A DNA stretch of 64,000 bases, taken from the NCBI RefSeq assembly GCF_001677475.2, contig NZ_CP015229.1; one strand, written 5' to 3'. Shown one piece after another: positions 455-32,152 of the stretch; position 1 is the stretch's first letter; every line of letters starts with the position of its first letter. The position numbers and the translations under genes are program-made. Under the pieces are notes generated by a model. That model was not told where the DNA came from, made no database searches, and saw only the letters and a program-made list of their open reading frames with translations. The stretch is from Escherichia coli (GTDB lineage Bacteria > Pseudomonadota > Gammaproteobacteria > Enterobacterales > Enterobacteriaceae).

Positions 455-461
455 GCAACTG

Positions 462-1539: not shown

Positions 1540-1809
1540 TAAAAAAATATGCATTTTTTCAGCATAAAATTAACTCATTCTTCTACTGAGATATAACCAT
1601 GATTTAACAACCAAGAACTTATATTGTTACTTTACGGCGTTATCTGAAATGTTGCCTAATCAAGAGTCTTTTTATACCACTCTCAGATACAGATTACTGA
1701 TGCGATATCCTGCACAGCCTGATTTTTGTCACAAAAGTTACGAAAATGAGTCTTCCACAACCTGGGGAGAAGAAAATGGATGAAACAAATATATAAGCTG
1801 TTTTAAGTT

Positions 1810-2139: not shown

Positions 2140-2216
2140 CTCAGTCCGCCTGGCGCCGATTATTCTGGCCGGTTTTGTAACCTGAGTGTCATTTACATGA
2201 TCCAACAGGAAATGGC

Positions 2217-3716
2217 GTGACGCTCAATACTTCTCAGGTCAGTTACTATATGACTCAGCGTAAGAAAGGTATAACTCAGCATATCTCGGCCATGAAGGCT
2301 GGTATCTCAGTCCGTTCTGGTCGTCGGATCGAAAAAGGAGAGTGGGCAAAAAACAGTGTTCGGCACTGGCGCACACGCAAAGATCCTCTGGAAGCTGTGT
2401 GGGACAGCATGCTTGTTCCTCTGTTGAAAGAGAGGCCGGCTCTGACACCAACAACTCTACTGGAGATGCTACAGGATAAATATCCCGGCCAGTACCCCAA
2501 CAGCCTTCGAAGAACAATGCAACGGCGGGTTCGCGAATGGAAACTACAGTATGGTACAGAGCAGGAGGTCATGTTCCGCCAGCAACATCAGCCCGGCCTG
2601 CGAGGCCTGTCGGACTTTACTGAACTGAAAGGTGTAGTTGTCACCATCGCCGGTAAGTTGTTGGCGCATAAGTTGTATCACTTCCGTCTGGAATGGAGCC
2701 ACTGGAGCTGGATGCGGGTTGTTCTGGGTGGTGAGAGCTTCTCTGCTCTGGCTGAAGGCCTGCAGGAAGCCCTCGGACAACTGGGCGGAGTGCCGGTAGA
2801 ACATAAAACGGACAGCCTGAGGGCAGCATGGAAACAACAGGGCGAAGATGGACGCCGCGAGCTGACTGAGCGTTATGCTACTCTCTGTCAGCACTACGGA
2901 ATGCAGGGCGTACACAATAATGCCGGTCGGGGCCACGAAAATGGCTCGGTTGAAAGTGCCCACGGACATCTGAAAAGGCGTATCTGTCAGGCGCTGATAC
3001 TGCGGGGCAGTAACGACTTCAGCACCATAGAAGAATATCAGGCCTTCATCACTCAGCAGGTTATGCGGCACAACCGTAACAATCAGGATCTGGTCAAGGA
3101 AGAACGTCTTCATCTGAAACCGCTGCCGCTTCGTCGCAGTGCTGACTATGATGAGCTGACTGTGAGGGTTAGTCGCAGCAGTACCATCAATGTGAAGCAC
3201 GTCGTCTACAGCGTACCTTCCCGGCTTGTAGGTCAACTGTTACGGGTCAGGTTATGGGACGATCGTCTGAGCTGTTACGTTGGCAGCAGCGAGGTCATGA
3301 GCTGCCCTCGCGTCAGACCAGAAAAAGGGAAGACGCGGGCCCGTCGTATCGACTTCCGACATGTGATCGACAGTCTGGCAAAAAAGCCCGGTGCGTTCTG
3401 CCATGCAACGCTGAGAAATGACATCCTGCCGGACGATGAATGGCGGAGGCTGTGGCGTCGCTTATGTAATCATCTGGAGCCCGATATGGCAGGAAGGCTG
3501 ATGGTACATGCCCTGAAACTGGCTGCAGGATACGACGATATCTCAGTCGTGGCAAAAGGTATGGAGCAGATGCTGAATACCCCGGGAAACGTGGATCTGC
3601 ACCGGCTGATGCGCTTCCTGGGTATAAAAGAAAAGGCGTTGCCGGTAGTCAATGTGATACAGCATAACCTGAGCAGTTATGAGCAACTACTGCGTGGCAA
3701 GGGAGGTTCGCAGTGA
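2217..3716 (+). CDS. istA: IS21-family transposase IstA
   Basis: 499-aa ORF immediately upstream of, and overlapping, an IstB ATPase gene; size and arrangement fit IS21-family IstA. True start may be internal. Confidence 0.7.
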   Translation: MTLNTSQVSYYMTQRKKGITQHISAMKAGISVRSGRRIEKGEWAKNSVRHWRTRKDPLEAVWDSMLVPLLKERPALTPTTLLEMLQDKYPGQYPNSLRRTMQRRVREWKLQYGTEQEVMFRQQHQPGLRGLSDFTELKGVVVTIAGKLLAHKLYHFRLEWSHWSWMRVVLGGESFSALAEGLQEALGQLGGVPVEHKTDSLRAAWKQQGEDGRRELTERYATLCQHYGMQGVHNNAGRGHENGSVESAHGHLKRRICQALILRGSNDFSTIEEYQAFITQQVMRHNRNNQDLVKEERLHLKPLPLRRSADYDELTVRVSRSSTINVKHVVYSVPSRLVGQLLRVRLWDDRLSCYVGSSEVMSCPRVRPEKGKTRARRIDFRHVIDSLAKKPGAFCHATLRNDILPDDEWRRLWRRLCNHLEPDMAGRLMVHALKLAAGYDDISVVAKGMEQMLNTPGNVDLHRLMRFLGIKEKALPVVNVIQHNLSSYEQLLRGKGGSQ

Positions 3717-4468
3717 GCAATATCCATCACCTTGAACATAGCCTGCGTAAACTACGCCTGACACGAGTTGGAGCTGAATGGCACGCTCTGGAAAAACGAG
3801 CGCTGGCAGAAGGCTGGACACCATCGCGCTATCTTCTGACGCTATGCAATGAAGAACTCCTGTGGCGCGAGAGTGAAAAACTGCGTCGTTATAAAAAGGA
3901 GGCCCGGTTGCCAGTTGCCAAAACGCTGAGCGAATACGACTTCAGTCAGGTGCCGGAACTGAATGGAGCTCAGTTCCGGCAACTCTGTGAAACGACAGAC
4001 TGGGTTGATGCAGGAGAAAACGTTCTGCTGTTCGGAGCCAGCGGGTTGGGGAAAAGCCATCTGGCGGCAGCGATCGTGGATGGCGTAGTAGGTCAGGGCT
4101 ACCGGGCCCGGTTCTACAGCGCAGGAGAGCTGTTGCAGGAACTACGTAAAGCCAGAGCTCAGTTGAAACTGAATGAGCTGCTACTGAAACTGGATCGCTA
4201 CCGGGTGATAGTGGTGGATGATCTTGGCTATGTCAAACGCGATAGTGCCGAAACGGGTGTGCTGTTCGAGTTAATAGCGCATCGCTATGAACGTGGGAGC
4301 CTGGTGATAACCAGTAACCATCCGTTCAGCATGTGGGGCAGCATCTTCGTGGATGAGACTATGGCGGTGGCTGCGGCAGACAGGCTGCTCCATCACGGAT
4401 ATATGTTCGAACTGAAAGGGGAAAGCTACAGGAAAAAGACAGCGAAGGCAGTAACAAGCGCGACTTGA
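3713..4468 (+). CDS. istB: IS21-family helper ATPase IstB
   Basis: 251 aa with Walker A GASGLGKSHLA and Walker B VIVVDDLGY; start overlaps istA stop. Confidence 0.85.
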   Translation: MSNIHHLEHSLRKLRLTRVGAEWHALEKRALAEGWTPSRYLLTLCNEELLWRESEKLRRYKKEARLPVAKTLSEYDFSQVPELNGAQFRQLCETTDWVDAGENVLLFGASGLGKSHLAAAIVDGVVGQGYRARFYSAGELLQELRKARAQLKLNELLLKLDRYRVIVVDDLGYVKRDSAETGVLFELIAHRYERGSLVITSNHPFSMWGSIFVDETMAVAAADRLLHHGYMFELKGESYRKKTAKAVTSAT

Positions 4469-4621
4469 TGTCGCCCTGAAGGGTGCGGCCAGTATAGTTG
4501 GCGCGAGTCGGCAAAACTAGTTGACGTCTAATACCTGCAGTCTTCACAGGCGTTACAAAATTTACAACGTCAACTGGGATTAATAGCCGGAGGTGAGGCT
4601 GGAAAACGGGCTGCAACGGCA

Positions 4622-5482
4622 GTGGGTCTCCGTTGCAGTGCAGATACTCATCTTCGCAGGGTTATCAATACCCCAGAGACGAAACTGTCAGGCTCATCCC
4701 ATGTCGGTATTGATGAGTGGGCGTGGCATCGGGGCCACCGTTACGGTACGTTAATCGTCAATCTTGATACTCACCGTCCCCTCGTCCTGCTTCCCGGCCG
4801 TGATCAGCGTACGCTGGCGACCTGGTTCAGAAAATATCCGGAAATACAGGTTGTCTCACGTGATCGCAGTGGAGTCTATACGACAACAGCACGTGTAGGT
4901 GCACCTCAGGCCAGACAGGTGGCCGATCGATGGCACCTGCTAAAAAATATTGGCGATGCGCCTGAACAAATGATGTACAGACATATACCTCAGATACGTC
5001 TTGTTGCCAGTGAGTTGTCACCAAAGAAATCACCTGATCCAGAACCATCTGTGCCTGCAGCATCGCTCCGTCGTCCGGAACACCTAAAACAGCAAACCCG
5101 CAAAAAACGGCATCAGCATTGGACAGAGGTTATGGCCCTGCATAACAAGGGATGTAGTTTCAGGGAAATATCCCGTATTACAGGCCTGTCGCGTGTGACA
5201 GTCAGTCGCTGGGTACGTTCAGGAACATTCCCTGAAATGTCAACCCGACCTCCAAAGCGAGGGCTTCTGGAACCATGGCGGGAGTGGTTAAAAGAGCAAC
5301 GAGAAAGTGGTAATTATAACGCCAGCCAGATATGGCGGGAAATGGTGGCCCGGGAGTTTACAGGCAGTGAAACCATTGTCAGGGATGCTGTTGCCAAATG
5401 GCGTAAAGGCTGGATCCCACCGGTTACTACTGCCGTCAGACTTCCTTCAGTGTCCCGGGTAAGCCGCTGGTTGATGCCCTAG
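4622..5482 (+). pseudogene. ISL3-family transposase, catalytic-core fragment (continuation of the 1810-2139 fragment)
   Basis: HVGIDEWAWHRGHRYGTLIVNLDTHRPLVLLPGRDQRTL...VVSRDRSGVY...ADRWHLLKN fits the ISL3 DDE-domain pattern as recalled; further C-terminal fragment in another frame at 5531-5683. Confidence 0.6.
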
Positions 5483-5583
5483 AGAATAATCAGGGATGAA
5501 GAAAATTATGCTTCCTGATTTATTAGTCTGATGTGTGAAAAAGAACCTGAGCTGAAAATAGCGCAGCAACTGGCACTCGAGTT

Positions 5584-8845
<3,262 letters not shown>

Positions 8846-8903
8846 ATTTGTGTAATTGCCTGATTTTGATATGTTCAATCCAGCATCAAATGAAGGTTAA
8901 TTT

Positions 8904-10101
8904 ATGGCCGAAAAACAGTTACAGACTCTGGCTAACGAACTGGCCAAAAACCTCAAAACCCCTGAAGACCTCAGTCAGTTTGATCGGCTGCTGAAGAAGC
9001 TCAGCGTTGAAGCCGCTCTCAATGCAGAATCTTGGGTATGAGAAAAATCAGTCCAGACCAGGAGCTAACTCCCGCAACGGTTATTCCACAAAGACCGTTA
9101 TCACAAGCGACGGTCCACTGGAACTGCGTACTCCGCGCGATCGTGAAGCTACCTTCGAACCACAACTGGTAAAGAAAAATCAGACCCGTATTACCGGGAT
9201 GGATAACCAGATCCTCTCGTTGTATGCCAAAGGGATGACCACCCGTGAGATAGCTGCTGCGTTCAAAGAACTGTATGACGCAGATGTTTCACCGGCACTG
9301 ATATCAAAGGTCACCGATGCCGTGATGGAGCAGGTTGTAGAATGGCAAAACCGACCACTGGATGCTGTTTACCCCATTGTTTATCTTGACTGTATCGTCC
9401 TGAAAGTTCGGCAGGACAGTCGCGTCATCAACAAATCGGTGTTCCTGGCACTGGGCATCAATATCGAAGGTCAGAAAGAACTGCCAGGTATGTGGCTGGC
9501 CGAAAATGAAGGGGAGAAGTTCTGGCTCAATGTGCTGACTGAACTGAAAAACCGCGGTCTGAACGATATCCTCATCGCCTGTGTGGATGGCCTGAAAGGC
9601 TTCCCGGATGCCATCAACACAGTATATCCGAAGGCCTGCATCCAGTTATGCATCGTGCATATGGTGCGCAACAGCCTGCGCTTCGTGTCATGGAAGGACT
9701 ACAAAGCCGTCACTCGCGACCTGAAAGCGATTTATCAGGCTCCCACGGAAGAGGCAGGTCAGCAGGCACTGGAAGCGTTCGCTGCGGCCTGGGACAGTCG
9801 CTATCCTCAGATAAGCCGAAGCTGGCAGGCTAACTGGCCGAATCTTGCCACGTTCTTCGCTTATCCAACGGACATCCGCAAAGTGATCTATACGACGAAT
9901 GCCATCGAGTCGCTAAACAGCGTGATCCGCCATGCGATCAAAAAGCGTAAAGTGTTCCCGACAGACGACTCGGTGAAAAAAGTGGTGTGGCTGGCAATCC
10001 AGTCTGCGTCCCAGAAATGGACGATGCCGTTGAAGGACTGGCGAATGGCAATGAGCCGCTTTATTATCGAGTTCGGTGACCGCCTGGACGGTCACTTCTG
10101 A
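8904..10101 (+). pseudogene. IS256-family (mutator-type) transposase, frameshifted near 9030
   Basis: N-terminus MAEKQLQTLANELAKNLKTPEDLSQFDRLLKKLSVEAALNAE in one frame stops near 9040; remainder (GYSTKTVITSDGPLELRTPRDREATFEPQLVKKNQTRITGMDNQILSLYAKGMTTREI...) continues in the 9007-10101 frame. Confidence 0.65.
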
Positions 10102-10181
10102 GAAAAGGCATTTACACAGAATCCTAAACAGGCTCTCCATTCCGGGAACGGCATCACCGCAAACTGCGCCGGAGGCAACCA

Positions 10182-10616
10182 TTACAGCCTCTGTAACGGA
10201 TTATCAGTTCCGATATTTTCCGGCGGCGCCTTCTGCCGCTCGCCCTCTCTGCTGTATACCCCGGTACCGCAGCGTGGGCAGCACTTTTCCCCCTCATAAT
10301 TTTCGTCACACATCAGACAAAACCACTTTCTCACCTTCACCGTATAATCCGGAACCGTCATGCCTTGCAGATGCAAACGACGGGCCTCTTTCTCTGCCGG
10401 GTCAAGCCAGGTGCATCGCAGCAGGATTTTCGCAGCAACAGTCATCTGGTCATGTTCAAACCACGGCGGTTGTCCGTCATTGCCCCGCTTAAGTGTTAAC
10501 GGACAACCACAGGACACACAGCACAAAACGTCCTGGCGGTTGTGCTTCGCGGCTTCTTTCGCCGTAACAAAATGGCCCTTGCTGTCATTCGCCATATAGC
10601 AGTTCAGAATTCGCAT
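10182..10616 (-). CDS. Cys-rich zinc-ribbon-like hypothetical protein (PWFEH motif)
   Basis: 144 aa; CCVSCGC...PPWFEH and C-terminal CLMCDENYEGEKCCPRCGTG; paralog of the 11562-11969 ORF. Confidence 0.5.
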   Translation of the reverse strand: MRILNCYMANDSKGHFVTAKEAAKHNRQDVLCCVSCGCPLTLKRGNDGQPPWFEHDQMTVAAKILLRCTWLDPAEKEARRLHLQGMTVPDYTVKVRKWFCLMCDENYEGEKCCPRCGTGVYSREGERQKAPPENIGTDNPLQRL

Positions 10617-10801
10617 ATCTCCTCCTTGTATCTTGACAATTGGTTAAAATAACTATGATTAGATTTGGCAAAGTGTATGTAGTCCGATCCCTCAAGGGAT
10701 TCATAGCCCGTAGCTCAGCGAATGGCGCATACACTGAGCCACTCATCTGAAACCCGAACAGTTGTCAGTACGCCATAACGCATTTGCAAGGATGGGTAAT
10801 C

Positions 10802-11549
<748 letters not shown>

Positions 11550-11561
11550 TAATTTTTACGT

Positions 11562-11969
11562 TCAAGACAGTTGCTGAGCTGTCCGGGGAAGACTGAAACC
11601 TCCGGTCTGGCAGTGTGTGCAGTACCGCTCCCCATAATAATCGTGGTGACATTGTCTGCAGTGCCAGCTGGCTTTACGCACCACGGGTAAGGCATCCGGT
11701 ACGAATTGCTGCAGACGTTTAATCAACCGTATTTCTCTGCGCTCTGGCCTGACATAAGGGCACTGTTGACCGTGCTCTGTCAGCCCGTCGTCAGTGTGTT
11801 CAAACCAGGGACGTTCAGTGTCGTATTGCGGGTGATATCTGAGCGAACTGCCACAAAGATGACAGGTATAACGATCATATGGCGCAGTCTGTGCGGTACG
11901 GGCACCGGTCAGACGTCCGTTGCCATCAAATGCAATAAAGGATTTTGCGTACATAATCATACTCCTCAA
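11562..11969 (-). CDS. Cys-rich zinc-ribbon-like hypothetical protein (PWFEH motif), paralog of 10182-10616
   Basis: 135 aa; CHLCGSS...RPWFEH and C-terminal WHCRQCHHDYYGERYCTHCQTGG; same Cys spacing as the paralog. Confidence 0.5.
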   Translation of the reverse strand: MRSMIMYAKSFIAFDGNGRLTGARTAQTAPYDRYTCHLCGSSLRYHPQYDTERPWFEHTDDGLTEHGQQCPYVRPERREIRLIKRLQQFVPDALPVVRKASWHCRQCHHDYYGERYCTHCQTGGFSLPRTAQQLS

Positions 11970-12214
11970 CCGCCAGACGACACGCAGGCGTCAGCCGTCC
12001 CGGTACGGGCTGCGTGGTCAGAGTGTGAATGGCGGTTCAGTTAAAATCTGGATCCGGGGTTGGGTAAAGCAGGCTGGTTGTTGTTACAGCACTGTGGTTG
12101 TCACACAATGGCGCTCTGGCGTAAAAAACAACCAGTGGGAGAAAAGGTACATCGTTGCAGCCAGACAACAGTCCATTGTTTTGGTTTTACTGAATACTGG
12201 TGCGCCAGTCGTAC

Positions 12215-12820
12215 TCAATTCCGGCTACAGCCAAAATTACGCTCACCGGTACCGTTGACTTTGGTATACTCTTTCGCGAGATAGTCAGCACGGTTCAGCA
12301 TATCCCGTAAACCAGCATCATCATCGCGTTCCAGCCACACCACCGGCCTGGACGGAAAATTCGCCAGTGTGGCATAGCATCCGGCATCCACCCCCAGGGC
12401 ACTGCACCACGCCTGTTTAATCATCCCGGCCAGTGACCCCGGATCGCGGTAATCGCCCGCACCACACCAGGTATCACGGTTGACCAGCAGTATCAGGTGA
12501 TAGTGTTTTTTACCTTTGTTCTCCCCGAACTCCCGGGCCCAGACGTAATGCAGCCTTGTGGTATGTACGCGTTTACCTTCACGGCGCTTACGCTTCTGGT
12601 AAGCGTCGATTCGGGCTTTCAGGGCATTGATGAAGCGGGATATTACAGCCGCGTCCGTTGCTGCCGGTACATCCGGGAGACGCAGATCAACCCGCAATGC
12701 CGTCAGACGGGGATGAACATCCAGTGCGTGCAGCACCGTCTCACGGATACGTTGTTGCCAGAAGGGGTTGTATTTGTAGGTCATGGTTAAATCTCCGTAT
12801 GTTTCATACGGAATAGCCAC
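12215..12820 (-). CDS. YagK/YfjJ-like (inovirus Gp2-type) cryptic-prophage protein
   Basis: 201-aa ORF; MTYKYNPFWQQRI... start region and overall composition resemble the YagK/YfjJ family as recalled; likely start at the internal Met (12784). Confidence 0.5.
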   Translation of the reverse strand: MAIPYETYGDLTMTYKYNPFWQQRIRETVLHALDVHPRLTALRVDLRLPDVPAATDAAVISRFINALKARIDAYQKRKRREGKRVHTTRLHYVWAREFGENKGKKHYHLILLVNRDTWCGAGDYRDPGSLAGMIKQAWCSALGVDAGCYATLANFPSRPVVWLERDDDAGLRDMLNRADYLAKEYTKVNGTGERNFGCSRN

Positions 12821-12983
12821 GTCGTAAAAAATGCGCAGAGCCCCTGAGGTGACCTCCGGCAGGACACTGTCTCAGGCCCTCTGTGATAACCCGAACGGTC
12901 GTCTCCGGACTGACGGTTGAATTTTCAGCGTTGTTTTTTTAATGTAAAAAACCGGTTACGGGTAAGGCTGTGAGGAGGGAGTT

Positions 12984-13184
12984 ATGGTGATACGCAAAAA
13001 GAAGTGCAGGGACTGTGGAAACGCGATTACTCATAATACAGTGTGTTGCCCGTATTGTGGTTCTGTCGACCCCTTCGGCTATTACCGGAATACAGACCGT
13101 ATCGTTACCATACTGCTGGCACTGATTATTGTGGTCCTGCTGACTACTGTCAGCGTCAGTGTGTATATACTGTGTAGCTGGTGA
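12984..13184 (+). CDS. Small zinc-ribbon plus single-transmembrane hypothetical protein
   Basis: 66 aa; CRDCGN...CCPYCGS followed by hydrophobic IVTILLALIIVVLLTTVSVSVYIL. Confidence 0.3.
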   Translation: MVIRKKKCRDCGNAITHNTVCCPYCGSVDPFGYYRNTDRIVTILLALIIVVLLTTVSVSVYILCSW

Positions 13185-14240
13185 GATAACGGTTCATGTA
13201 TCCCCTGAGCTGACAGTGTACCGGGTATATTAAGCGTAACCGACAGGTTCTCCTTCATACCATATTAAATTTTTCCAGGTATTGCCGCTGCCTTATTTCG
13301 TCCCATACAGGAAAACTCGTCTGGGTTTCTGACAAATACGTGAAACTCACAGCCCCTCAATATCAACCACACGCTGTAAGCCGGTAATACCTGAAAATCA
13401 GCCTATTACCGCCCACGCCTCCGGTACCATTCCCTTTTGATTTCGAATTCTTTGTTGTCGCTATACCGCGTAACATCACCGATACCACACACCGGCACAG
13501 ATAACACCGGACTTATCGTAGCGCTGCTTCAATATTCAGGTGACATATTTCCAGACGGAAGCCGGCACGCGATCGTAAAATTTGCGGTCAGTTCTGCCAG
13601 CCGGTTGTCAACGGCAGAGTTAAAGGCTTCCAGCTCCGCAAGGGTAAGTTTATAACGCGTGTAGGAATTCACTTTTCCCGCGTCTCCTGACGTATTACGG
13701 GCTGCCACTTACCTGGTGTCCCGCAATACAGCCTTAGTGTTCCGTTATCGGGGATCCAGACGCACCGCAACAACCGGGGAAGTATTTTTGGTTAGAGCAG
13801 TGTCAAGAGGGATTTCTCAGCCCCTCACTCACCGGCTCAGTTTCAGGGCAGGAGCATTAATACGCTCAGTTCATGTCTTATACAGGAATGGGCACAGGGG
13901 GAGCTGGCGTGTCACTGCTGATTTTACGCATCAGCGTTCATGTATCTGCACTCTGATACAGAATGCTTCACAGCGCTCTGTTACCGGAGAGATTTACTAT
14001 CTTAGGTTATTCTGGCAAATCCTTTACGTTACTCTCTGATGACTTCTTATATTCATAATACCAATCAGACAACCTTATCCCATCGGTGATATCAGTCTCC
14101 TGCTCGCCAGGAACGGGCTGACTCACTGTAACCACCTCCGAAAACAACTCTGCAATTATCAGAACGCCTGCTTCTCTCCCTGTCCTCACGAAAACTATCC
14201 CCTCTTTATCGCGCGTGCGTGCGGAAGCATCTTTTCGCAA

Positions 14241-14256
14241 CCCCCCCCCCCCCCCC
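14241..14256. repeat. Homopolymeric C16 tract
   Basis: Direct read: gcaa-cccccccccccccccc-ggga at 14241-14256. Confidence 0.85.
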
Positions 14257-14420
14257 GGGATTCCGCTACGGCTCTGCCATCGCAATCCCCCCGTTTATCT
14301 CCGGACAGCCAGATTCCCGATTATTTTTTACGTTTCTCCCCGGTTGTTATGCCGGTGAAGGTGGCGCGCTGTTTTCATGACCACACCGGCTGGTTTAACA
14401 ACATCCGGAGGAACATTCTC

Positions 14421-14627
14421 ATGGCTACCCCAGTTTCGCTGATGGATGACCAGATGGTCGACATGACGTTTATCACTCAACTGACCGGCTTAACCGATAA
14501 GTGGTTTTACAAACTCATCAAAGATGGGGCCTTTCCTGCCCCCATCAAACTGGGTCGCAGTTCCCGCTGGCTGAAAAGCGAAGTGGAAGCCTGGCTGCAG
14601 GCGCGGATTGCTCAGTCCCGTCCGTAA
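14421..14627 (+). CDS. AlpA-family phage-type transcriptional regulator
   Basis: 68 aa from ATG at 14421 with GGAGG 9 nt upstream; FITQLTGLTDKWFYKLIKDGAFPAPIKLGRSSRWLKSEVEAWL matches the AlpA HTH pattern. Confidence 0.65.
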   Translation: MATPVSLMDDQMVDMTFITQLTGLTDKWFYKLIKDGAFPAPIKLGRSSRWLKSEVEAWLQARIAQSRP

Positions 14628-14720
14628 TTTTTAACCACTAACCCTTCGCCCAAAGCAGACGCAATCTCCGGCCTGCCGGCGGCGCTCTGCTGCCTGTTAT
14701 CCCCCGTGAGGAATATGAAA

Positions 14721-15323
14721 ATGAAACAACAGTATCAGACCCGTTACGAGCTGCTCCATGAAAACTACCAGAAATGGCTGACCGGCTTCACCCGGCACGC
14801 CGTATCATGGGGCGTGTGTCATCCGAATATCTACTATTTCCATAATCTGACGCCCGGGTGGGTGTCATTCAATGGCGAAAAACCGGAGATTGCCATCGTT
14901 CCCCAGAGTCTGCACCGGCTGATTTATGGTCCGGACAAACGGAGCTCCCCGTCTCTGGGTGATGATCTGATAGTGAATTTATGCACCAGCGAACACCTGC
15001 TGGTTCATCATCCGATGCTGGAAGGGATCCTGCTATCTGAATGTGAGCGCCTGAAGCAACATTCTCTGGCAAACAAACTGATCAGCCTCTTCCGTCAGTT
15101 TGGCGGCACGGAGTTACGTCTCAAACTGGTCTGGCTCTGCTGGCTTGATTTAATGACCGGAAACAGCCTTGACGACTGGACGAAAAACCTGAAACACAAA
15201 TCAGAAAAAGATCTGGAGCAATGGATCATTGCACGTCAGGGTCAGAGTGAACCACTGACAAATCTGATGGATCAGTACGTGCTTATGGCATACCGTACAT
15301 CGGTTGATGCCGCTCACAGTTGA
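14721..15323 (+). CDS. Hypothetical protein (about 200 aa), no recognised family
   Basis: Uninterrupted ORF directly downstream of the AlpA-like gene, RBS-like GAGGA upstream; start choice (14706/14715/14721) uncertain. Confidence 0.4.
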   Translation: MKQQYQTRYELLHENYQKWLTGFTRHAVSWGVCHPNIYYFHNLTPGWVSFNGEKPEIAIVPQSLHRLIYGPDKRSSPSLGDDLIVNLCTSEHLLVHHPMLEGILLSECERLKQHSLANKLISLFRQFGGTELRLKLVWLCWLDLMTGNSLDDWTKNLKHKSEKDLEQWIIARQGQSEPLTNLMDQYVLMAYRTSVDAAHS

Positions 15324-16125
15324 TGTCTGAGAACCACAGGGCTGGCAGTTGAAAACCAGCCCTGTGGTAAAATACAGTAATAGCGGCGTACATCAGGCAC
15401 GCCGCTCACTCGTCCACAGATCATATACGTCATTATACTGCGCGATAACGGAGGGCTTCAGCACCCGGTCATTTCTGAGCGGGTATGAATACCATTGATG
15501 ATGCGAAGCAGCCACGGGCAGAAACGTTCTTCACAACCAGGTGCCTCCATCTTCACTGCAGGCTGAATGTGCCGGCTTGTTATCCACCAGATAATGGTAT
15601 GCTCCGGTACATGCATACCCCGGTGACTATAAACGCACTGAATCATAGCCTCCCACCTCAGCAGGAGGCAGTCAGCTTTCAGGCGGAAAAACGTTGCAGT
15701 TAAAGATCGTGAGAATCGCTGTTTCGTTGCATAGCAACCTGAACAGTTGTAGTGAAACATTTTCCTGCATCAGCACATGGTCAGGGGCCGTCTGTATGGC
15801 GTGGAATACTGATGTTTCGGCTGATGGCAAGCCTCATTCTCTGTGGAAAAAGGGGCGCGCATTAGCTTCTCAACCAGAGAGCGTCACAAAGACAAATATT
15901 GCTGAAAATCGCATTCATCGTTCAGACGTGAATGCCCGGAGACAAAAGCCGCTGTCCGTACAGCCCCCCTCTGACCTGAACAAAAAGCATACACACAACA
16001 GGCTCACCTGCCCCCGAAAAACCATAACTTCAGCAATACCAGTGACACCAGCACGTTACCTCAGTGCCACATCTTTAGACCGCGATCAATCTGAAATGTG
16101 ACTATCGGGGCAATATCCCTGCTTT

Positions 16126-16515
16126 GTGGTACACGATAACCAGAAAACATCCCCTGAACCGCCAGCCAGAAAGACTGGCCACAAAAGGGGTAAGCTGAAA
16201 TCGTTTATGGATTACATCGACATATGCCTAGCAGAGAATGTCCGGAATGACGAGATTATCTTTGCGGAGATTAAGGCAATGGGCTATACGGGCCGACGTT
16301 CCATGCCGCGTTACTACATTCAGCCCGGACGTAAAATGCGCCCGTCAAAAAGAACGGTTCGCTTCGAAACTCAGCCAGGATACCACCTCTCCGTCACACC
16401 CGGGAAGAAGTTGATATGGTGGTTGCCGGACAACAGCGCTCCTGGATTGACTGCTGCATCACTCAACCACGCTGAATATCAAAGGAGAGCGTTACCGGTT
16501 AAAAGAGAAACGTAA
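16126..16515 (+). pseudogene. IS21-family IstA N-terminal remnant
   Basis: PEPPARKTGHKRGKLKSFMDYIDICLAENVRNDEIIFAEIKAMGYTGRRSMPRYYIQPGRKMRPSKRTVRFETQPGY closely parallels the IS21 IstA N-terminal region as recalled; homology stops after about 80 residues. Confidence 0.55.
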
Positions 16516-17706
16516 AGCTATGGTGATGACCCAAAACGCAACGCCTGTCAGTGAGGATGAAATGGTGAAAAGCGGACAGCATCAGTAACGGAAGTATCTT
16601 AGCGGGTACGAAAATGGCAGGATCGTGACATTGACAGAATATCTCCTGATCATCTTGAATGACTGCAGTTGCTGTGGAAAAGTAAGCTATCTCCACCCAC
16701 GGCACCACTTAACAGGCATTCCGTAACTTCCCCCAGACTTACTATGACGCATTATCGGTGCACTGAAAACAGGAGAGTGCGCTTAAAACCGCAGACCGCA
16801 TGCGGGTGTTACTGCATGACAGTCTGGCCGTATTGTGAGATGTCGGCAGGAACCGATGTCCGCGCAGGGGGGAACTTCCTGTAGTACCTGACGCTTCAAA
16901 TGGTATTAACCGTAGGGCGTTGTTGGTTCCGGATCGCGGAAATGGGAGCACAGGTCTGCTACGGGGTGTACCTCTGACAGTAAATCCGGCTCGCTCATCT
17001 GACAGCCTCTCTCCCGGAAAAGACCAAAAATGAGATCGTCTCCTCAACAGCAGAGAAAAGGTCTTGACAGACAGGCTACATTGCATACGATTTATGAAGA
17101 AAAAGACAGCAAATATGGAGGTTATAGCGGAGAACACCCTACGAAATTCCTATGAAAAACGATTGGAAAAAATATCAAATTCGATTCGTTTTTATATGCT
17201 TTTTGGGAGCGTGGCGATGACGAACTGTTGCATGTACAGAGGAGAATGCACCCGGAAGCACCAGAATCATCCAGAAAGGCAGAACGATTACGCATCAAAC
17301 CAGGAGACAGCAATATCACGGTAATATACTGATTTAAAATGAATTTACAGCAATACGTGAAAACATTTTTTACTTAAAGGAGACAGATGCGCTGAAGAGA
17401 GTGCAGGTATTTTTATATAAAAATGAGAAGTTTACGGGATGTATATCCGGCACACTATGACCGGAGAATATCAGTCAAGCTTAAAAAGGCAATAAATACA
17501 GTGAGTTAAATACACAGAGAAAACGTAGTATCAGAGGGTACATCTTACAACAGAGACTGAATTTCCGGTTTTTCATAACCGGCGCATTTCGGAAAGTGCA
17601 GGCGGCCAGGAGGTTTTCTGACGCCACTACCTAGTAGATTGTTCTGTACATCATGTACGGAGGTTTTTGTTTGCTTTTTTAAAATCTGCAAATGTGAGAA
17701 GAGCAG

Positions 17707-18873
17707 GTGAGGTGTATTGTGGGAAAGGAACTGGATGATATCTGCACCAGCTGTCCGTATATCGATGCTGTAAAACGGCACAAACAACAGCTCGGTGCCA
17801 TAGAGGAATATACACAGTGGTTAAAAAAAGAACCACGGGCATCTTATTTTTTTCTGTTCCGGCTGTATACCCGCATTCACAATACATTTTTCCCCCAAAA
17901 GCAACAACTCCCGTTCACTCCCGGTGGCACTCACTGCCCGGAACCTGATGTCACCCTTCGGGACTTAACGCTTTCCCCGGGCTACCACAGTGATTATGCC
18001 CCTCACCCCATTCCGGAGATGGACAGTTCTATTGTTGTTCCCCCCACTAATGAAAACACCTCGCCTCCGGAAGATACTCCCGACAACACTCCGGCCGGAG
18101 GCAATACCGGACAAGCGGAAAAGACCAGAAACGCAGGACTCACACCCATTCCTGAAAAACGTTCAGGAATGCCCCCGGAACATCTGCGGTTTGCCATGGG
18201 TTTTCCATCGCAACCGAAGATTGCCGGTCCCAGAGAAAAGCCGATGCGCACCGTGCATCCGGATAATATCTACCGTGAAATTATATGGTTCTGCTCCAGT
18301 TACCTGCTGAAATCCGGACCAGAGGCTACGAGGACGATTATCAACTCAGTATTCTCTGAATGGGCCAGCATAAACAATGATTACCCCTCCCCCTTTTCGT
18401 GGGTGGACAGCAGGGACAGTGAACAGTGTGACTGGTTATGGAACGCCATGCAGGTCCGGTGTGTGGGAACCCCGCTGAATCCCCTTACCCCGGAGCAGAA
18501 ATACTGGTTCGCCTGCGCCACATTTGATAACTGGGAAGGCTGGAATGAGCAACAGGTACAGTTTTTACTGGAAAGTAATCCCAGACGAAACAGAGCGAAG
18601 TTTGCGATAAACTCCTTCCAGACTCTCGGGGTTAAACAGCATAAAGCAGTTCTTCTTGATGAACTGAAAAGTGCCCGGGAGCAACAAAAAAGGCGTGATG
18701 AACGTGCTGATGGTTCCGTCCCGCTGAAACTGTCCGGAAAAATCCACAAACAGCTTGAAAGTGTTGCCCGAAGTCGTGGTGTCCCCCCCAAAAAACTGCT
18801 GAATGAAATGATTGAGCAGGCGTACCGGGATTTGGTGGCAACCAGGCAGAACAGCCAGATCGATTCCAGATAA
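17707..18873 (+). CDS. Hypothetical protein with Pro/Thr-rich segment and C-terminal ribbon-helix-helix-like tail
   Basis: 388-codon ORF from GTG (first in-frame ATG at 18019); low-complexity PPTNENTSPPEDTPDNTP; C-terminal LKLSGKIHKQLESVARSRGVPPKKLLNEMIEQAY resembles an RHH/CopG-type motif. Confidence 0.4.
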   Translation: MRCIVGKELDDICTSCPYIDAVKRHKQQLGAIEEYTQWLKKEPRASYFFLFRLYTRIHNTFFPQKQQLPFTPGGTHCPEPDVTLRDLTLSPGYHSDYAPHPIPEMDSSIVVPPTNENTSPPEDTPDNTPAGGNTGQAEKTRNAGLTPIPEKRSGMPPEHLRFAMGFPSQPKIAGPREKPMRTVHPDNIYREIIWFCSSYLLKSGPEATRTIINSVFSEWASINNDYPSPFSWVDSRDSEQCDWLWNAMQVRCVGTPLNPLTPEQKYWFACATFDNWEGWNEQQVQFLLESNPRRNRAKFAINSFQTLGVKQHKAVLLDELKSAREQQKRRDERADGSVPLKLSGKIHKQLESVARSRGVPPKKLLNEMIEQAYRDLVATRQNSQIDSR

Positions 18874-18956
18874 TTTCAGACATATATTATCTCCGTGAAT
18901 CCCCCGCCACCTTTCCGGTGTGCGGGGTTTTGTCTTTTTTCACCGGGAATACATGT

Positions 18957-19829
18957 ATGAATCCGTCTGATGCCATTGAGGCAATTGAAAAACCACTTTC
19001 TTCCCTGCCTTACTCGCTTTCCCGTCACATCCTGGAACATCTGCGCAAACTCACCAGTCACGAACCCGTGATTGGCATTATGGGTAAAAGCGGGGCCGGT
19101 AAATCCTCACTCTGTAATGCGCTGTTTCAGGGGGAGGTCACACCGGTCAGTGATGTTCACGCCGGCACCCGGGAAGTGAAGCGTTTCCGTCTGAGTGGAC
19201 ACGGTCACAGCATGGTTATCACTGACCTGCCCGGGGTGGGCGAGAGCCGGGAGCGGGATGCAGAGTATGAAGCTCTGTACCGTGACATTCTGCCCGAACT
19301 GGACCTGGTACTGTGGCTGATTAAAACCGATGACCGTGCCCTGTCTGTGGATGAGTATTTCTGGCGACACATCCTGCACCGGGGACATCAGCAGGTGCTG
19401 TTTGTGGTGACGCAGGCCGATAAAACGGAGCCCTGCCATGAATGGGATATGGCCGGTATTCAGCCTTCTCCCGCACAGGCACAGAACATTCGCGAAAAAA
19501 CGGAGGCGGTATTCCGTCTGTTCCGGCCCGTACATCCGGTTGTGGCCGTATCGGCCCGCACCGGCTGGGAACTGGATACGCTGGTCAGTGCGCTCATGAC
19601 AGCGCTTCCCGACCATGCCGCCAGTCCCCTGATGACCCGCCTGCAGGACGAGCTGCGCACGGAATCTGTCCGCGCTCAGGCCCGTGAACAGTTTACCGGT
19701 GCGGTGGACCGGATATTTGACACGGCGGAGAGCGTCTGTATTGCCTCTGTTGCATGCACGGTTCTGCGTGCCGTCCGTGACACGGTGGTCTCTGTTGCCC
19801 GCGCTGTATGGAACTGGATTTTCTTCTGA
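18957..19829 (+). CDS. YeeP/YkfA/YfjP-family small GTPase
   Basis: P-loop GIMGKSGAGKSS, switch-like DLPGVGE and G4-like region; sits immediately upstream of the Ag43 gene as in CP4-44-type modules. Confidence 0.7.
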   Translation: MNPSDAIEAIEKPLSSLPYSLSRHILEHLRKLTSHEPVIGIMGKSGAGKSSLCNALFQGEVTPVSDVHAGTREVKRFRLSGHGHSMVITDLPGVGESRERDAEYEALYRDILPELDLVLWLIKTDDRALSVDEYFWRHILHRGHQQVLFVVTQADKTEPCHEWDMAGIQPSPAQAQNIREKTEAVFRLFRPVHPVVAVSARTGWELDTLVSALMTALPDHAASPLMTRLQDELRTESVRAQAREQFTGAVDRIFDTAESVCIASVACTVLRAVRDTVVSVARAVWNWIFF

Positions 19830-19944: not shown

Positions 19945-19988
19945 AAACGATCGATAAAACAGGTATCGATCGTTACTATCGATCGTTT
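19945..19988. promoter_or_regulatory. Ag43 phase-variation switch (three GATC sites, OxyR-binding region)
   Basis: GATC at 19949-19952, 19968-19971 and 19981-19984 within AACGATCGATAAAACAGGTATCGATCGTTACTATCGATCG, about 220 bp upstream of the Ag43 start codon. Confidence 0.7.
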
Positions 19989-20201
19989 ATAGTGGTTAAT
20001 GGCCTGCGAAAAGGCAGCTGAATCTCTTCATCATGCAGAACGGAATTGCACACAACGGACTGATACTTCTCTGGCGGATGAGAGAGGGGAAGCATTTATG
20101 TCCGGGAAAAACCACTTTATCTGACCATGCTGTTTTGTACCTGCCGGTATCCACATTTGTGGGTACCGGCTTTTTTATTCACCCTCTGTAAGGAAAAGCT
20201 G

Positions 20202-23048: not shown

Positions 23049-23168
23049 CAGAACCATCGCCTCTTTGTGGTCCCGGTCATCATGATCGGGACCCGGACCG
23101 GCGCAACGGATATTCAACGCCACATTCGCTGGCATTAACAATAACATGATATTCATCACGGAGTGACT

Positions 23169-25685
23169 ATGTTACAGATAGTCGGCGCGCTGATCCTGCT
23201 GATAGCAGGATTTGCCATTCTTCGCCTTTTGTTCAGAGCATTAATCAGCACGGCTTCTGTGCTGGCAGGGCTTATATTGCTGTGTCTGTTCGGCCCGGCC
23301 TTACTGGCTGGCTATATCACCGAACGCATAACACGGTTGTTCCATATTCGCTGGCTGGCAGGCGTATTTCTGACGATTGCCGGAATGATCATCAGCTTCA
23401 TGTGGGGACTTGATGGTAAACATATCGCGCTGGAGGCTCACACCTTTGACTCTGTGAAATTTATTCTGACCACCGCTCTCGCCGGTGGTCTGCTGGCTGT
23501 TCCCCTGCAGATCAAAAACATTCAGCAGAACGGGATCACACCAGAAGATATCAGCAAGGAAATTAACGGGTATTACTGCTGTTTTTATACTGCCTTTTTC
23601 CTTATGGCATGTTCTGCATGCGCACCATTGATCGCGTTACAGTACGATATTTCACCGTCACTGATGTGGTGGGGCGGGTTGTTGTACTGGCTGGCTGCAT
23701 TAGTGACGCTGCTATGGGCGGCCAGCCAAATCCAGGCGCTGAAAAAACTGACCTGTGCCATCAGCCAGACACTGGAAGAACAACCGGTGCTCAACAGTAA
23801 ATCGTGGCTGACCAGTTTGCAAAACGATTACAGCCTTCCTGACTCACTGACGGAGCGCATCTGGCTGACGCTCATTTCTCAACGGATTTCCCGGGGAGAG
23901 CTGAGGGAATTTGAACTGGCAGACGGAAACTGGTTACTGAACAATGCCTGGTATGAAAGAAACATGGCAGGTTTTAACGAACAGTTGAAAGAGAACCTGT
24001 CATTCACACCTGATGAACTGAAAACGCTCTTCCGGAACCGCCTGAATTTATCACCGGAAGCGAATGACGATTTTCTCGATCGTTGCCTGGACGGCGGTGA
24101 CTGGTATCCCTTTTCAGAAGGTCGCCGTTTTGTATCATTCCATCACGTGGATGAGCTTCGTATCTGTGCCTCCTGCGGGCTGACAGAAGTACATCATGCC
24201 CCGGAAAATCATAAGCCGGATCCGGAATGGTACTGCTCCTCTCTTTGTCGCGAAACAGAAACACTGTGTCAGGAAATTTATGAACGCCCTTACAACTGTT
24301 TTATTTCCGATGCAACGGCGAATGGTCTGATTCTCATGAAACTGCCGGAAACCTGGAGTACAAATGAGAAAATGTTTGCTTCCGGAGGGCAGGGACATGG
24401 GTTTGCCGCTGAACGGGGAAACCATATTGTCGACAGAGTCCGTCTGAAAAACGCACGGATCCTCGGTGATAATAATGCCAGAAATGGAGCAGACAGACTG
24501 GTCAGCGGAACAGAAATCCAGACGAAATATTGTTCAACTGCAGCCCGTAGCGTCGGTGCGGCATTCGACGGACAAAACGGACAGTATCGTTACATGGGAA
24601 ATAATGGCCCCATGCAACTGGAAGTCCCCCGTGATCAGTATGCCGGCGCTGTTGAAACCATGAGGAATAAGATCCGCGAAGGTAAAGTACCCGGTGTAAC
24701 CGATCCCGCAGAAGCGTCCCGGCTGATTCGTCGGGGACATCTGACTTATACTCAGGCCCGTAATATCACCCGGTTCGGGACCATCGAATCGGTCACTTAT
24801 GATATTGCCGAGGGTTCGGTTGTCAGTCTGGCGGCCGGAGGGATCAGTTTTGCACTGACGGCATCGGTCTTCTGGCTCAGCACCAGCGATCGCGATGCAG
24901 CCCTGCAGACAGCTGCTGTCCAGGCAGGAAAAACCTTCACCCGCACACTGGCTGTCTACATCACAACCCAGCAACTCCACCGGCTCAGTGTTGTTCAGGG
25001 TATGCTGAAGCACATTGATTTTTCGACTGCCAGCCCGACTGTCCGACTGGCTCTTCAGAAGGGGACCGGTGCAGGAAATATCAGTGCCCTGAACAAAGTA
25101 ATGAAGGGTACGCTGGTGACATCTCTGGCACTGGTAGCTGTCACAACCGGCCCTGACATGATCAAAATGTTGCGGGGACGGATCTCCGGTGCGCAGTTCA
25201 TCAGGAATCTTGCCGTGGCATCTTCCGGTGTGGCAGGTGGTGCTGTCGGGTCAGTGGCGGGCGGAATACTGTTCAGTCCACTGGGACCATTTGGTGCACT
25301 GACAGGGCGTGTGGTTGGCGGTGTTCTGGGGGGAATGATTGCCTCCGCTGTATCAGGAAAAATTGCCGGAGCGCTGGTTGAAGAAGATCGCGTCAAAATT
25401 CTGGCAATGATTCAGGAGCAGGTGACATGGCTTGCCGGCAGTTTCCTGCTGACCGGACATGAGATTGAAAATCTGAACGAGAATCTGGCCCGTGTTATCG
25501 ATCAGAATGCTCTGGAGATCATTTTCGCCGCCGGTATACAACAACGGGCCGCGACCAATATGTTAATCAAACCACTGGTGGTCAGTATCATCAGGCAACG
25601 CCCCGTCATGGAATATGATGCATCCCATCTCGGCAATATGGTTAACCGACTGGAAGAAGCATTACCCCCGGAGTTACCGGCATAA
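23169..25685 (+). CDS. YeeR-like inner-membrane protein (uncharacterised)
   Basis: About 838 aa; several N-terminal hydrophobic helices, central Cys cluster CASCGLTEVHH...YCSSLC, Gly-rich C-terminal helices (GVAGGAVGSVAGGILF...VVGGVLGGMIASAVSG); position right after flu as for yeeR. Confidence 0.5.
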   Translation: MLQIVGALILLIAGFAILRLLFRALISTASVLAGLILLCLFGPALLAGYITERITRLFHIRWLAGVFLTIAGMIISFMWGLDGKHIALEAHTFDSVKFILTTALAGGLLAVPLQIKNIQQNGITPEDISKEINGYYCCFYTAFFLMACSACAPLIALQYDISPSLMWWGGLLYWLAALVTLLWAASQIQALKKLTCAISQTLEEQPVLNSKSWLTSLQNDYSLPDSLTERIWLTLISQRISRGELREFELADGNWLLNNAWYERNMAGFNEQLKENLSFTPDELKTLFRNRLNLSPEANDDFLDRCLDGGDWYPFSEGRRFVSFHHVDELRICASCGLTEVHHAPENHKPDPEWYCSSLCRETETLCQEIYERPYNCFISDATANGLILMKLPETWSTNEKMFASGGQGHGFAAERGNHIVDRVRLKNARILGDNNARNGADRLVSGTEIQTKYCSTAARSVGAAFDGQNGQYRYMGNNGPMQLEVPRDQYAGAVETMRNKIREGKVPGVTDPAEASRLIRRGHLTYTQARNITRFGTIESVTYDIAEGSVVSLAAGGISFALTASVFWLSTSDRDAALQTAAVQAGKTFTRTLAVYITTQQLHRLSVVQGMLKHIDFSTASPTVRLALQKGTGAGNISALNKVMKGTLVTSLALVAVTTGPDMIKMLRGRISGAQFIRNLAVASSGVAGGAVGSVAGGILFSPLGPFGALTGRVVGGVLGGMIASAVSGKIAGALVEEDRVKILAMIQEQVTWLAGSFLLTGHEIENLNENLARVIDQNALEIIFAAGIQQRAATNMLIKPLVVSIIRQRPVMEYDASHLGNMVNRLEEALPPELPA

Positions 25686-25760: not shown

Positions 25761-26216
25761 ATGATTCACCTGTTCAAAACCTGCATGATTACCGCCTTCA
25801 TTCTGGGGTTAACGTGGTCTGCCCCACTCCGGGCACAGGATCAACGTTACATCAGTATACGCAATACAGATACGATATGGCTCCCGGGAAATATTTGTGC
25901 TTACCAGTTCCGGCTGGATAATGGCGGAAACGATGAAGGATTTGGCCCCCTCACCATCACTCTGCAACTCAAAGACAAATATGGTCAGACGCTGGTGACC
26001 AGAAAAATGGAAACGGAAGCTTTTGGTGACAGTAATGCCACGCGAACCACAGACGCATTTCTGGAAACGGAGTGCGTGGAAAATATCGCCACAACCGAAA
26101 TCATTAAAGCAACTGAAGAAAGTAACGGCCATCGTGTCAGTCTGCCGTTATCGGTTTTCGATCCCCAGGACTACCATCCACTGCTAATTACCGTTTCCGG
26201 AAAAAACGTTAACTGA
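25761..26216 (+). CDS. Secreted hypothetical protein
   Basis: 151 aa with signal-peptide-like MIHLFKTCMITAFILGLTWSAPLRA; RBS AGAGAGG upstream. Confidence 0.45.
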   Translation: MIHLFKTCMITAFILGLTWSAPLRAQDQRYISIRNTDTIWLPGNICAYQFRLDNGGNDEGFGPLTITLQLKDKYGQTLVTRKMETEAFGDSNATRTTDAFLETECVENIATTEIIKATEESNGHRVSLPLSVFDPQDYHPLLITVSGKNVN

Positions 26217-31615: not shown

Positions 31616-32152
31616 TTACCCCCCTCCAAATTCCAGCCGCTGCACATTCACCATCCCTGGCTTCTCACCTACGCTGACATCAATTTGTGTCACCCGCAGC
31701 GCATATTTTTCATCCAGTGCGTTTAACCATTTCAGCAGGTCATTAAACACCACAGGTTCTATCCAGACCTGAATATTCTCCCCACGCTCGGCTATCCGCT
31801 TGATGACCACCGAGTGCGCGGAAGCACTGTCACTGATGACCCGCGATACCTGCGCAGGCGTTGTTGTGGCAGATTTTCGCGCTGCAATAATATCCGGCGC
31901 GGCGCTCTTCAGTCGCGCGTTCATCGCCACCAGCTGCTGCAACATCGTCTCCTGTTGTTCTATCCGTTCGCTCAACGGCTGCCAGATGAGGACGCAATAT
32001 CCGGCGCTAAACAGGAACACCACCGCTGCCAGTAACATGCCCTTTTCACGCGGAGAACGCCCCGCCAGGTGTTGTGTCAGCCAGTGTTCGCCACGGCTTA
32101 ACTGGCGTTCACGCCATTGCTGAAAATAGTGAATAAATTTATCGCGTAACAT
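31616..32152 (-). CDS. gspM: Type II secretion system protein M
   Basis: 178 aa, single N-terminal TM helix; last gene of the gsp operon. Confidence 0.75.
   Translation of the reverse strand: MLRDKFIHYFQQWRERQLSRGEHWLTQHLAGRSPREKGMLLAAVVFLFSAGYCVLIWQPLSERIEQQETMLQQLVAMNARLKSAAPDIIAARKSATTTPAQVSRVISDSASAHSVVIKRIAERGENIQVWIEPVVFNDLLKWLNALDEKYALRVTQIDVSVGEKPGMVNVQRLEFGGG

Follow-up and report, generated by a model that had tools for sequence, protein, structure and literature searches.

The stretch of DNA analysed here (the window) is 64,000 nucleotides (nt) from Escherichia coli (RefSeq assembly GCF_001677475.2, contig NZ_CP015229.1). It contains a cryptic-prophage island of the CP4-like kind, and in this island an open reading frame (ORF) of no named family stands directly upstream of a gene for a YeeP-like GTPase. 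We argue that the ORF encodes a site-specific DNA-binding regulator, that this regulator is part of the island backbone, and that it acts on a conserved non-coding element ahead of its own gene instead of working with the GTPase. The function is inferred, and we give it about an even chance of being right. The gene itself is real, conserved and selected, not a chance ORF. It is also a backbone gene of islands that carry AlpA, YfjJ and an integrase, not cargo. What is new is an uncharacterised family that joins a known DNA-binding module, a predicted ribbon-helix-helix (RHH), with a new helical domain. We claim no surprising chemistry or mechanism for it.

The ORF list places the gene at 17707..18873 on the plus strand. 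The initial annotation left its start open between GTG 17707 and ATG 18019. That ambiguity was real, but it can be settled, and neither candidate is the start. GTG 17707 is missing or out of frame in a second allele (P0004, locus L021), whose protein is 77% identical to the window protein. ATG 18019 lies downstream of the motif WLKxxPRAxxFxLF (residues 34-47), which is found family-wide, is under purifying selection and is kept down to 20% identity. The codon equivalent to GTG 17719 is the start used by the Prokaryotic Genome Annotation Pipeline (PGAP) and other gene callers, and the P0004 allele keeps it together with the GAGGTG/CAGGTG Shine-Dalgarno sequence 4 nt upstream. Since GTG 17719 is the start, the coding part is 17719..18873 and the protein has 384 amino acids (aa). 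All the peptides quoted in the initial annotation are found in the translation: numbered from GTG 17719, PPTNENTSPPEDTPDNTP is at aa ~105-122, WFACATFDNW and WEGWNEQQVQF are at aa 263-282, and LKLSGKIHKQLESVARSRGVPPKKLLNEMIEQAY is at aa 336-369.

Of 5426 complete E. coli genomes, 2096 (39%) match the coding sequence (CDS) at 95-99% identity. The match is always called as a CDS and always annotated "hypothetical protein", and none is a pseudogene among the matches listed. In 1963 of the 2096 genomes the match spans at least 80% of the CDS in an unbroken reading frame; a genome carries 1-3 copies. Taking the P0004 allele as reference, the ratio of nonsynonymous to synonymous substitution rates (dN/dS) is 0.29 for aa 1-60, 0.59 for the linker that follows, 0.38 for the core, 0.64 for the C-terminus and 0.50 overall. 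The synonymous rate dS is 0.76 in the linker, against 0.08-0.29 in the flanking parts. The folded parts of the protein are under purifying selection.

No database names this family at present, and we call it here the CP4-like island Trp-rich/RHH protein. The initial annotation could assign the ORF to no family, and our searches agree. The window protein has no match in Pfam (E <= 1), NCBIfam or PADLOC, and PHROGs gave noise only. A single-sequence search of the PDB returned nothing, the phage genome collection held no match and the plasmid search gave 3 matches only. Word-indexed searching found relatives of the E. coli type only. An exhaustive hidden Markov model (HMM) search from a small alignment reached 60 proteins, among them full-length relatives at 20-30% identity, and a genome scan added relatives in Yersinia, Kluyvera, Serratia, Hafnia, Brenneria, Enterobacter and Photorhabdus. 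Cluster look-ups gave members in Klebsiella oxytoca, Salmonella enterica, Citrobacter, Cronobacter, Kosakonia, Yersinia ruckeri, Y. enterocolitica and Vibrio diazotrophicus, every one a "hypothetical protein". At least 3 widely diverged lineages occur within E. coli: that of the window protein, that of P0031 (~32% identity) and that of P0045 (~25%). The window protein carries every motif of the family, namely WLKxxPRAxxFxLF, PFSWxDxxxExQCxWxW, FDxW, KAWxQKxxR and the C-terminal RHH. SEN1998 of ROD21 was considered as a relative and rejected; it is an AlpA-type factor of another family. We found no study of the protein in the literature. In the annotation of the SRL pathogenicity island the ORFs directly upstream of the YeeP/YfjP homologue are listed as having "no similarity" (PMC6980539).

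A confident AlphaFold (AF2) model was built from an alignment of 34 sequences that includes distant homologues. The mean predicted local distance difference test score (pLDDT) is 78, the predicted template modelling score (pTM) is 0.70, and residues 15-57 and 150-384 are mostly above 90. With 5 close sequences alone the pLDDT is 38. The N-terminal helix pair holds W34 and R40, which are conserved at >=90% in the family alignment. It is followed by the linker, described in the initial annotation as low-complexity, and this description stands: pLDDT is below 50 at residues 74-141, the segment is rich in indels and unalignable across the family, and it is largely missing from short (~290 aa) members. 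Between E. coli alleles the linker has 49-75% nucleotide identity and the rest of the gene 87-98%. The Trp-rich central region, also remarked on in that annotation, is the most conserved part of the family, and W215, W228 and W239 are invariant in the 34 sequences. Foldseek gave no significant match for this core in the PDB or BFVD. On the model, the core is a predicted new helical domain without a convincing structural relative. In hhalign the N-terminal motif aligns with the central FSW...CxWxW motif, in the same register as visual inspection had suggested (P = 0.0027, probability 11%). The alignment hints, though weakly, at an internal repeat, which is plainer in the short-type members.

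The C-terminal tail is probably an RHH. Three partly independent lines point to this, each weak alone. In the AF2 model the tail is an extended segment followed by two helices at pLDDT ~95, and the strand-helix-helix fold of ~45 residues that marks the RHH superfamily is present. A 74-position profile of the tail, searched against the PDB, matches MatP of three species first (E = 0.0055, 0.047 and 0.091) and covers MatP 75-129 (~54 residues). Later matches, in register, are HP0222, CopG (2CPG, 1B01), CopG-family regulators, Reg576, MazE7 and protein 56B. All these profile matches are marginal (E = 0.005-0.5). With the whole family set against E. coli MatP in hhalign, only residues 335-371 align, with MatP 93-129, at a probability of only 16%. 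The basic helix directly before the RHH strand aligns with the RARRKRHF segment of MatP. A Pfam scan of 25 members (E <= 10) found weak RHH-type noise only: RepB-RCR_reg at 0.02 (4 members), RHH_7 at 0.035, RHH_1 at 0.054, and HicB. Neither the window protein nor the 25 members reached any curated RHH model of Pfam at its threshold. The modelled fold and the in-register matches to MatP, HP0222, CopG, Reg576 and MazE7 speak for the RHH/CopG-like tail that had been read from the sequence. The antitoxin role that had been offered with it is unlikely, since there is no linkage to a cognate toxin, a hairpin lies between the genes, and the genes occur separately.

MatP (PDB 4D8J, 3VEA, 7NYW) is the best match of the tail, and it shares the plan of a helical N-terminal domain, a basic helix and an RHH. 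MatP chains are also 4 of the 5 top Foldseek matches, although these are not significant (for 4D8J, E is 6-9 and the template modelling score 0.26-0.29). The likeness stops there. Among the 25 members (E <= 10) there is no match to the MatP N-terminal four-helix bundle PF06303, nor to PF17414, the central RHH region of MatP, despite the marginal PDB profile match. The C-terminal coiled coil of MatP has no separate counterpart, and our protein ends with RHH helix 2. It is 2.5 times larger than MatP, has a linker that is disordered, and its core is of another, Trp-rich kind. MatP is a single chromosomal core gene that acts on matS sites, whereas this is a mobile-island gene with 1-3 copies in 39% of E. 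coli genomes; no site like matS was seen, although no search was aimed at such sites. Membership of the MatP family is not supported, because only the RHH and the basic helix resemble MatP. The CopG/Arc/MetJ repressors (PF01402, PF16777) have 45-100 aa and are mostly RHH alone, whereas here the predicted RHH is the last 50 of 384 aa. HicB-type antitoxins also have a C-terminal RHH after a larger domain, and a weak PHROG HicB-like match covers aa 300-376 (E = 0.15). However, the N-terminal domain of our protein is not HicB-like, there is no adjacent gene for a HicA-type or other toxin, and the GTPase gene downstream is controlled separately.

A candidate binding site for the protein is found upstream of its gene. 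In 12 loci of Enterobacterales other than E. coli there is a conserved element made of a box, TAACYNATTGATWTT, and, ~25 nt on, 2-3 repeats in 11-bp phase, CTACGTTTTTA. The box reads TTGATA/TTGATT and the repeats are TACTACG-like; the repeats are also given as CTACGTTTTT, and the whole may be written as the TAACYNATTGAT/CTACG element. In these loci it occurs once per locus, always 100-175 nt before the gene, and nowhere but upstream of it. An unbiased blastn comparison of the E. coli and Klebsiella-type upstream regions found a single non-coding similarity, at 17135-17204. K-12 CP4-57 is without the gene and also without the element. We link the element to the gene because it occurs once per locus, only upstream of the gene, is found again in E. 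coli and is missing from CP4-57, as is the gene. In short-type loci a palindrome centred on TACGTA stands directly before the ATG; in Vibrio it is ACTACGTAGT.

The E. coli counterpart lies in a non-coding block of ~600 nt (16928-17527). Two E. coli alleles share this block at 89-96% identity, while their linkers are only 49-75% identical. The block also includes a promoter-like site and an 86-aa ORF (17064-17324) that is predicted mechanically and is missing from every annotation, and Rfam finds nothing in it. Nearer the start codon, 17642-17683 is a partial second copy of 17106-17242 (direct-repeat families D1, D2 and D4) and is conserved between alleles.

The surroundings of the gene are those of a backbone gene. 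The integrase-island setting with an AlpA/YfjJ module was confirmed in the window and 15 other loci. In 11 loci of other Enterobacterales (L004-L006, L008, L012-L016, L018 and L019) the order is a YfjJ-like gene (-), a gene for a 205-aa protein, hyp205 (-), AlpA (-), a gap of 500-900 bp, our gene (+) and the GTPase (+), although L013 and L016 gave no YfjJ-like match. These loci continue with DUF932, antirestriction and RadC genes where they extend far enough. Others depart from this order. L017 has a truncated copy of our gene at the locus end, and no GTPase is seen. In L025 (Kosakonia) our gene is next to the YfjJ-like gene and the leftward order differs, but the GTPase still follows. In Vibrio diazotrophicus (L010) it lies between the YfjJ-like gene and an integrase without a GTPase, and in L024 it comes after AlpA as the final gene of the island, again without a GTPase. 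K-12 CP4-57 and CP4-44 have the GTPase and lack our gene. The initial annotation asked whether the gene is conserved upstream of YeeP-like GTPases. The pairing is frequent (the window and 12 other loci) but not obligatory, as L010, L024 and K-12 show. Across genera our protein has 24-31% identity, the GTPase 49-59%, AlpA 60-76% and DUF932 69-74%. The gene is by far the fastest-evolving of the set. The gene of the 205-aa protein stands with AlpA in all the related loci (28-63% identity), as a second unnamed backbone gene.

The GTPase gene has a leader of its own. In 11 of 11 loci a near-invariant TTTCAGACAGATATTATCTCC, with a TATTAT hexamer like a -10 box, is followed by a lineage-specific GC-rich stem and a U-tract directly before the GTPase start. 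In the window the leader folds at -30.5 kcal/mol (z = -3.4). The hairpins were judged by single-sequence folds; RNAalifold gave no consensus for the leader, with the variable-length hairpins misaligned. The same leader precedes yfjP in K-12 CP4-57 (L026 14620-14710), where our gene is absent. Since the leader is present without our gene in K-12, it belongs to the GTPase unit, and our gene is a separate unit. The leader looks like a promoter-proximal terminator or attenuator and is possibly a target of AlpA-type antitermination. A complementary segment flanks it and reaches the GTPase Shine-Dalgarno sequence.

We argue for the following route from structure to function. Two copies of the protein would dimerise by way of the RHH strand, as all RHH proteins do, and the resulting sheet of two strands, which holds the conserved K337, would enter the DNA major groove. 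The basic helix KAWxQKxxR may add backbone contacts, like the equivalent helix of MatP. The likely binding site is the element upstream of the gene, with its phased 11-bp repeats, or, for short members of the Vibrio type, the TACGTA palindrome. By binding this site the protein would autoregulate its gene and set the state of the switch region next to alpA. The Trp-rich core could be an oligomerisation or signal-receiving part and the linker a flexible tether. The fast divergence of the protein beside neighbours at 50-75% identity would fit a role in specificity or sensing.

Several points weigh against this regulator. DNA binding, dimerisation and regulation by the protein are things that we infer rather than observe. 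All the RHH sequence matches are marginal (the best is the E = 0.0055 above) and the Pfam thresholds are not reached. The core domain yields no functional clue. In E. coli the element is ~515-585 nt upstream of the gene. There, too, alpA-hyp205 has the same orientation as our gene, so a simple divergent switch fails. CTACG is invariant, while the RHH strand varies in the family (LKL, ISL, ITL, LVL), and a search for covariation between the strand residues and the CTACG motif found none. Since there is no such covariation, the reader of the element may instead be AlpA, the YfjJ Rep-like protein or RNA polymerase.

It is worth weighing the regulator against two more specific versions of it, which we hold about equally probable. 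One can picture a repressor with a sensor, whose RHH silences the island at the switch region until a helper phage or plasmid protein docks on the Trp-rich domain and releases it, as with Stl of the Staphylococcus aureus pathogenicity islands (SaPI). We think this possible but doubtful. In 12 non-E. coli loci our gene and the alpA operon are divergently arranged, none of the neighbouring genes diverges nearly as fast as ours, and several divergent lineages coexist in E. coli. Like Stl, it is a fast-diverging island protein at a divergent regulatory junction, with a small (here predicted) DNA-binding domain and a larger, potentially signal-receiving domain without DNA-binding function. The analogy is functional only: Stl is a helix-turn-helix protein of Gram-positive hosts, unrelated in sequence, and no inducer of our protein is known. 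The divergent arrangement is lost in E. coli, and with dN/dS below 1 the folded domains give no sign of positive selection. A role in transfer or replication, which we also consider unlikely though worth keeping in mind, would make the element an origin of transfer (oriT) or a rolling-circle origin for the YfjJ/inovirus-Gp2-like initiator. The RHH would then bind the phased repeats and aid the nicking complex, like TraM/TraY at the F oriT or the RHH accessories of relaxosomes, and also autoregulate. The gene always neighbours the YfjJ/Gp2-like module, the box and 11-bp-phased repeats suit an origin, and the DUF932, antirestriction, RadC and toxin-antitoxin genes downstream resemble a conjugative leading region. 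A related class of Pseudomonas islands, with a core of integrase, AlpA, RadC and Gp2-like genes, moves horizontally (bioRxiv 10.1101/2024.08.29.610337). However, no nick site, relaxase or replication is known for the islands studied here, the likeness of the element to known nick sites is putative, and there is no conserved convincing hairpin around the box. K-12 CP4-57 has yfjJ without either the element or our gene. TraM of F-like plasmids (PDB 3ON0) has its RHH at the N-terminus, the reverse order, and no sequence similarity outside the RHH; these islands have no known oriT or relaxase.

A dedicated partner of the GTPase is improbable. Such a partner would be an RHH antitoxin or regulator, or the DNA-binding adaptor of a partition-like system driven by the GTPase. 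In E. coli and 12 other loci the GTPase gene does follow ours directly, RHH proteins do act as antitoxins and centromere binders, and the 11-bp iterons upstream recall parC/ParR. Yet the conserved hairpin and U-tract separate the two genes, the leader and GTPase occur without our gene in K-12 CP4-57, and our gene occurs without the GTPase in Vibrio (L010) and L024. A protein of 384 aa with a C-terminal RHH is unlike typical antitoxins, and the GTPase is no known toxin or partition motor. The centromere binders ParG, ParR and omega are marked by iterated binding sites and by an adjacent partition NTPase of the ParA or ParM type. Phased 11-bp repeats do lie upstream of our gene in the non-E. coli loci; however, the neighbour is an MMR_HSR1/dynamin-like GTPase, which is dispensable for co-occurrence. 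It is very improbable that the ORF is decaying or non-functional, or that it is a fusion or frameshifted remnant of known genes. Insertion sequence (IS) debris surrounds it, frameshifts or truncations affect some database copies (P0014, P0015 and P0017), and the overall dN/dS of 0.50 means moderate constraint only. Against this, the frame is intact in those 1963 genomes, the same one-piece architecture reaches as far as Vibrio, the AF2 model is confident and no part matches a known gene family. The remnant explanation was rejected on the intact frame and the architecture. The DNA-binding regulator is the favoured reading, and the features of the gene and its surroundings are collected in the table.

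Table. Features of the gene, its protein and the surrounding island in the window (positions count from the first letter of the window).
Feature	Position	Strand	Basis or remark
YfjJ/inovirus-Gp2-like gene	12215-12820	-	
AlpA	14421-14627		
205-aa protein (hyp205)	14706-15323	+	Directly after alpA; no Pfam or PADLOC family
Promoter-like TTGACA-16-TACGAT	17064..17091	+	Consensus scan, 10/12 matches; consensus match only
E. coli counterpart of the conserved upstream element (CCTACGAAATTCCTATG ... TTCGATTCGTTTTTATATGCTTTTT)	17135..17204	+	blastn E = 0.005; candidate operator/binding site
Near-palindrome CTGTACAT-C-ATGTACGG with phased T-tracts (GGTTTTTGTTTGCTTTTTT)	17642..17683	+	36-77 nt before start; terminator-like/inverted-repeat call
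Shine-Dalgarno-like GAGGTG	17709..17714	+	4 nt before GTG 17719; read from sequence; CAGGTG in P0004 allele
CDS of the 384-aa protein	17719..18873	+	GTG start, stop codon included; ORF list, PGAP start, conserved start/Shine-Dalgarno, dN/dS <1 in all segments
N-terminal helix pair (aa 15-57), motif WLKxxPRAxxFxLF	17761..17889	+	AF2 helices 15-31, 33-37, 39-57, pLDDT 85-96
Pro/Thr/acidic linker (aa ~60-148), disordered, hypervariable	17896..18162	+	pLDDT, indels, allele divergence
All-alpha Trp-rich core (aa 150-331)	18166..18711	+	ANG motif, PFSWxDxxxExQCxWxW, FDxWxGW, long basic helix KAWxQKxxR (aa 297-331)
C-terminal RHH (aa 332-384), probable	18712..18870	+	Predicted strand ~335-339 (PLKLS), helix 340-353, helix 357-383
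GTPase-gene leader: TTTCAGACA(G/T)ATATTATCTCC, GC hairpin (18902-18927), U-tract (18928-18940)	18874..18956	+	RNA fold
YeeP/YfjP-like GTPase	18957..19829	+	Pfam MMR_HSR1 5e-15; 49-59% identical in other genera, after our gene

The island in the window runs in the order IS debris, the YfjJ/inovirus-Gp2-like gene, AlpA, the 205-aa protein, IS21 remnants, our gene, the YeeP-like GTPase, the IsrC/IS102 RNA and Ag43. After Ag43 come the YeeR-like, IrmA, DUF932, antirestriction, RadC, DUF5983 and DUF4942 genes. The island apparently ends after the DUF4942 gene (~31340), and from 31616 the chromosomal type II secretion genes begin with GspM (31616-32152, -). The stretches 1-11300 and 15300-16600 are dense in transposase genes of the IS21 (istA/istB, twice), ISL3, IS3, IS256/Mutator and IS110 types, and IS21 fragments lie between the alpA-hyp205 pair and our gene. 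That pair (14349-15323) has the same direction as our gene in E. coli and the opposite direction in every other Enterobacterales locus (compared with L004, L008 and L012-L019). From this difference we take the regulatory junction to have been inverted or rearranged in the E. coli lineage.

Downstream of the GTPase, 19947-20183 (+) matches the Rfam IS102/IsrC small RNA (74.8 bits, E = 1e-11) and lies between the GTPase and Ag43 genes, as in K-12 CP4-44. An 840-aa YeeR-like membrane protein follows Ag43 (23163-25685, +). It has no Pfam match and a weak PADLOC match to PDC-M09B, a candidate defence protein (E ~1e-5). A homologue of IrmA, the interleukin-receptor mimic, is at 25761-26216 within the island. 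L001 (E. coli B379, 10643-15008) has the same pair of our gene and the GTPase, with a cargo of dynamin-family, RdcB-family and patatin-like phospholipase genes in place of Ag43. Since the cargo after the GTPase differs there, this slot is a site of cargo exchange. At the leftward end of the Klebsiella oxytoca-type island (L004-L006, 210-2814) a reverse transcriptase gene adjoins a PRTase-CE/winged helix-turn-helix gene, and it is probably retron-type or other reverse transcriptase-based defence cargo.

CP4-like islands are present in most E. coli genomes. They carry adhesins, Ag43 among them, anti-phage defence systems, and toxin-antitoxin pairs such as CbtA/CbeA. To our knowledge the regulation and movement of these islands are poorly understood. 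The present analysis gives an anonymous ORF a confident fold, a probable DNA-binding tail and a candidate binding element, and this makes it a testable candidate regulator of an island family that is among the most widespread in E. coli. We suggest with much reserve that the protein and its upstream element might together be the control or mobilisation module of the commonest cryptic-prophage island family of this species. The module could take two forms, a sensor-repressor freed when a helper phage or plasmid protein docks on its fast-evolving Trp-rich domain, or a TraM-like accessory factor marking an origin for the YfjJ/Gp2-like initiator. If true, either form would explain how supposedly inert CP4-like islands are switched on and move.

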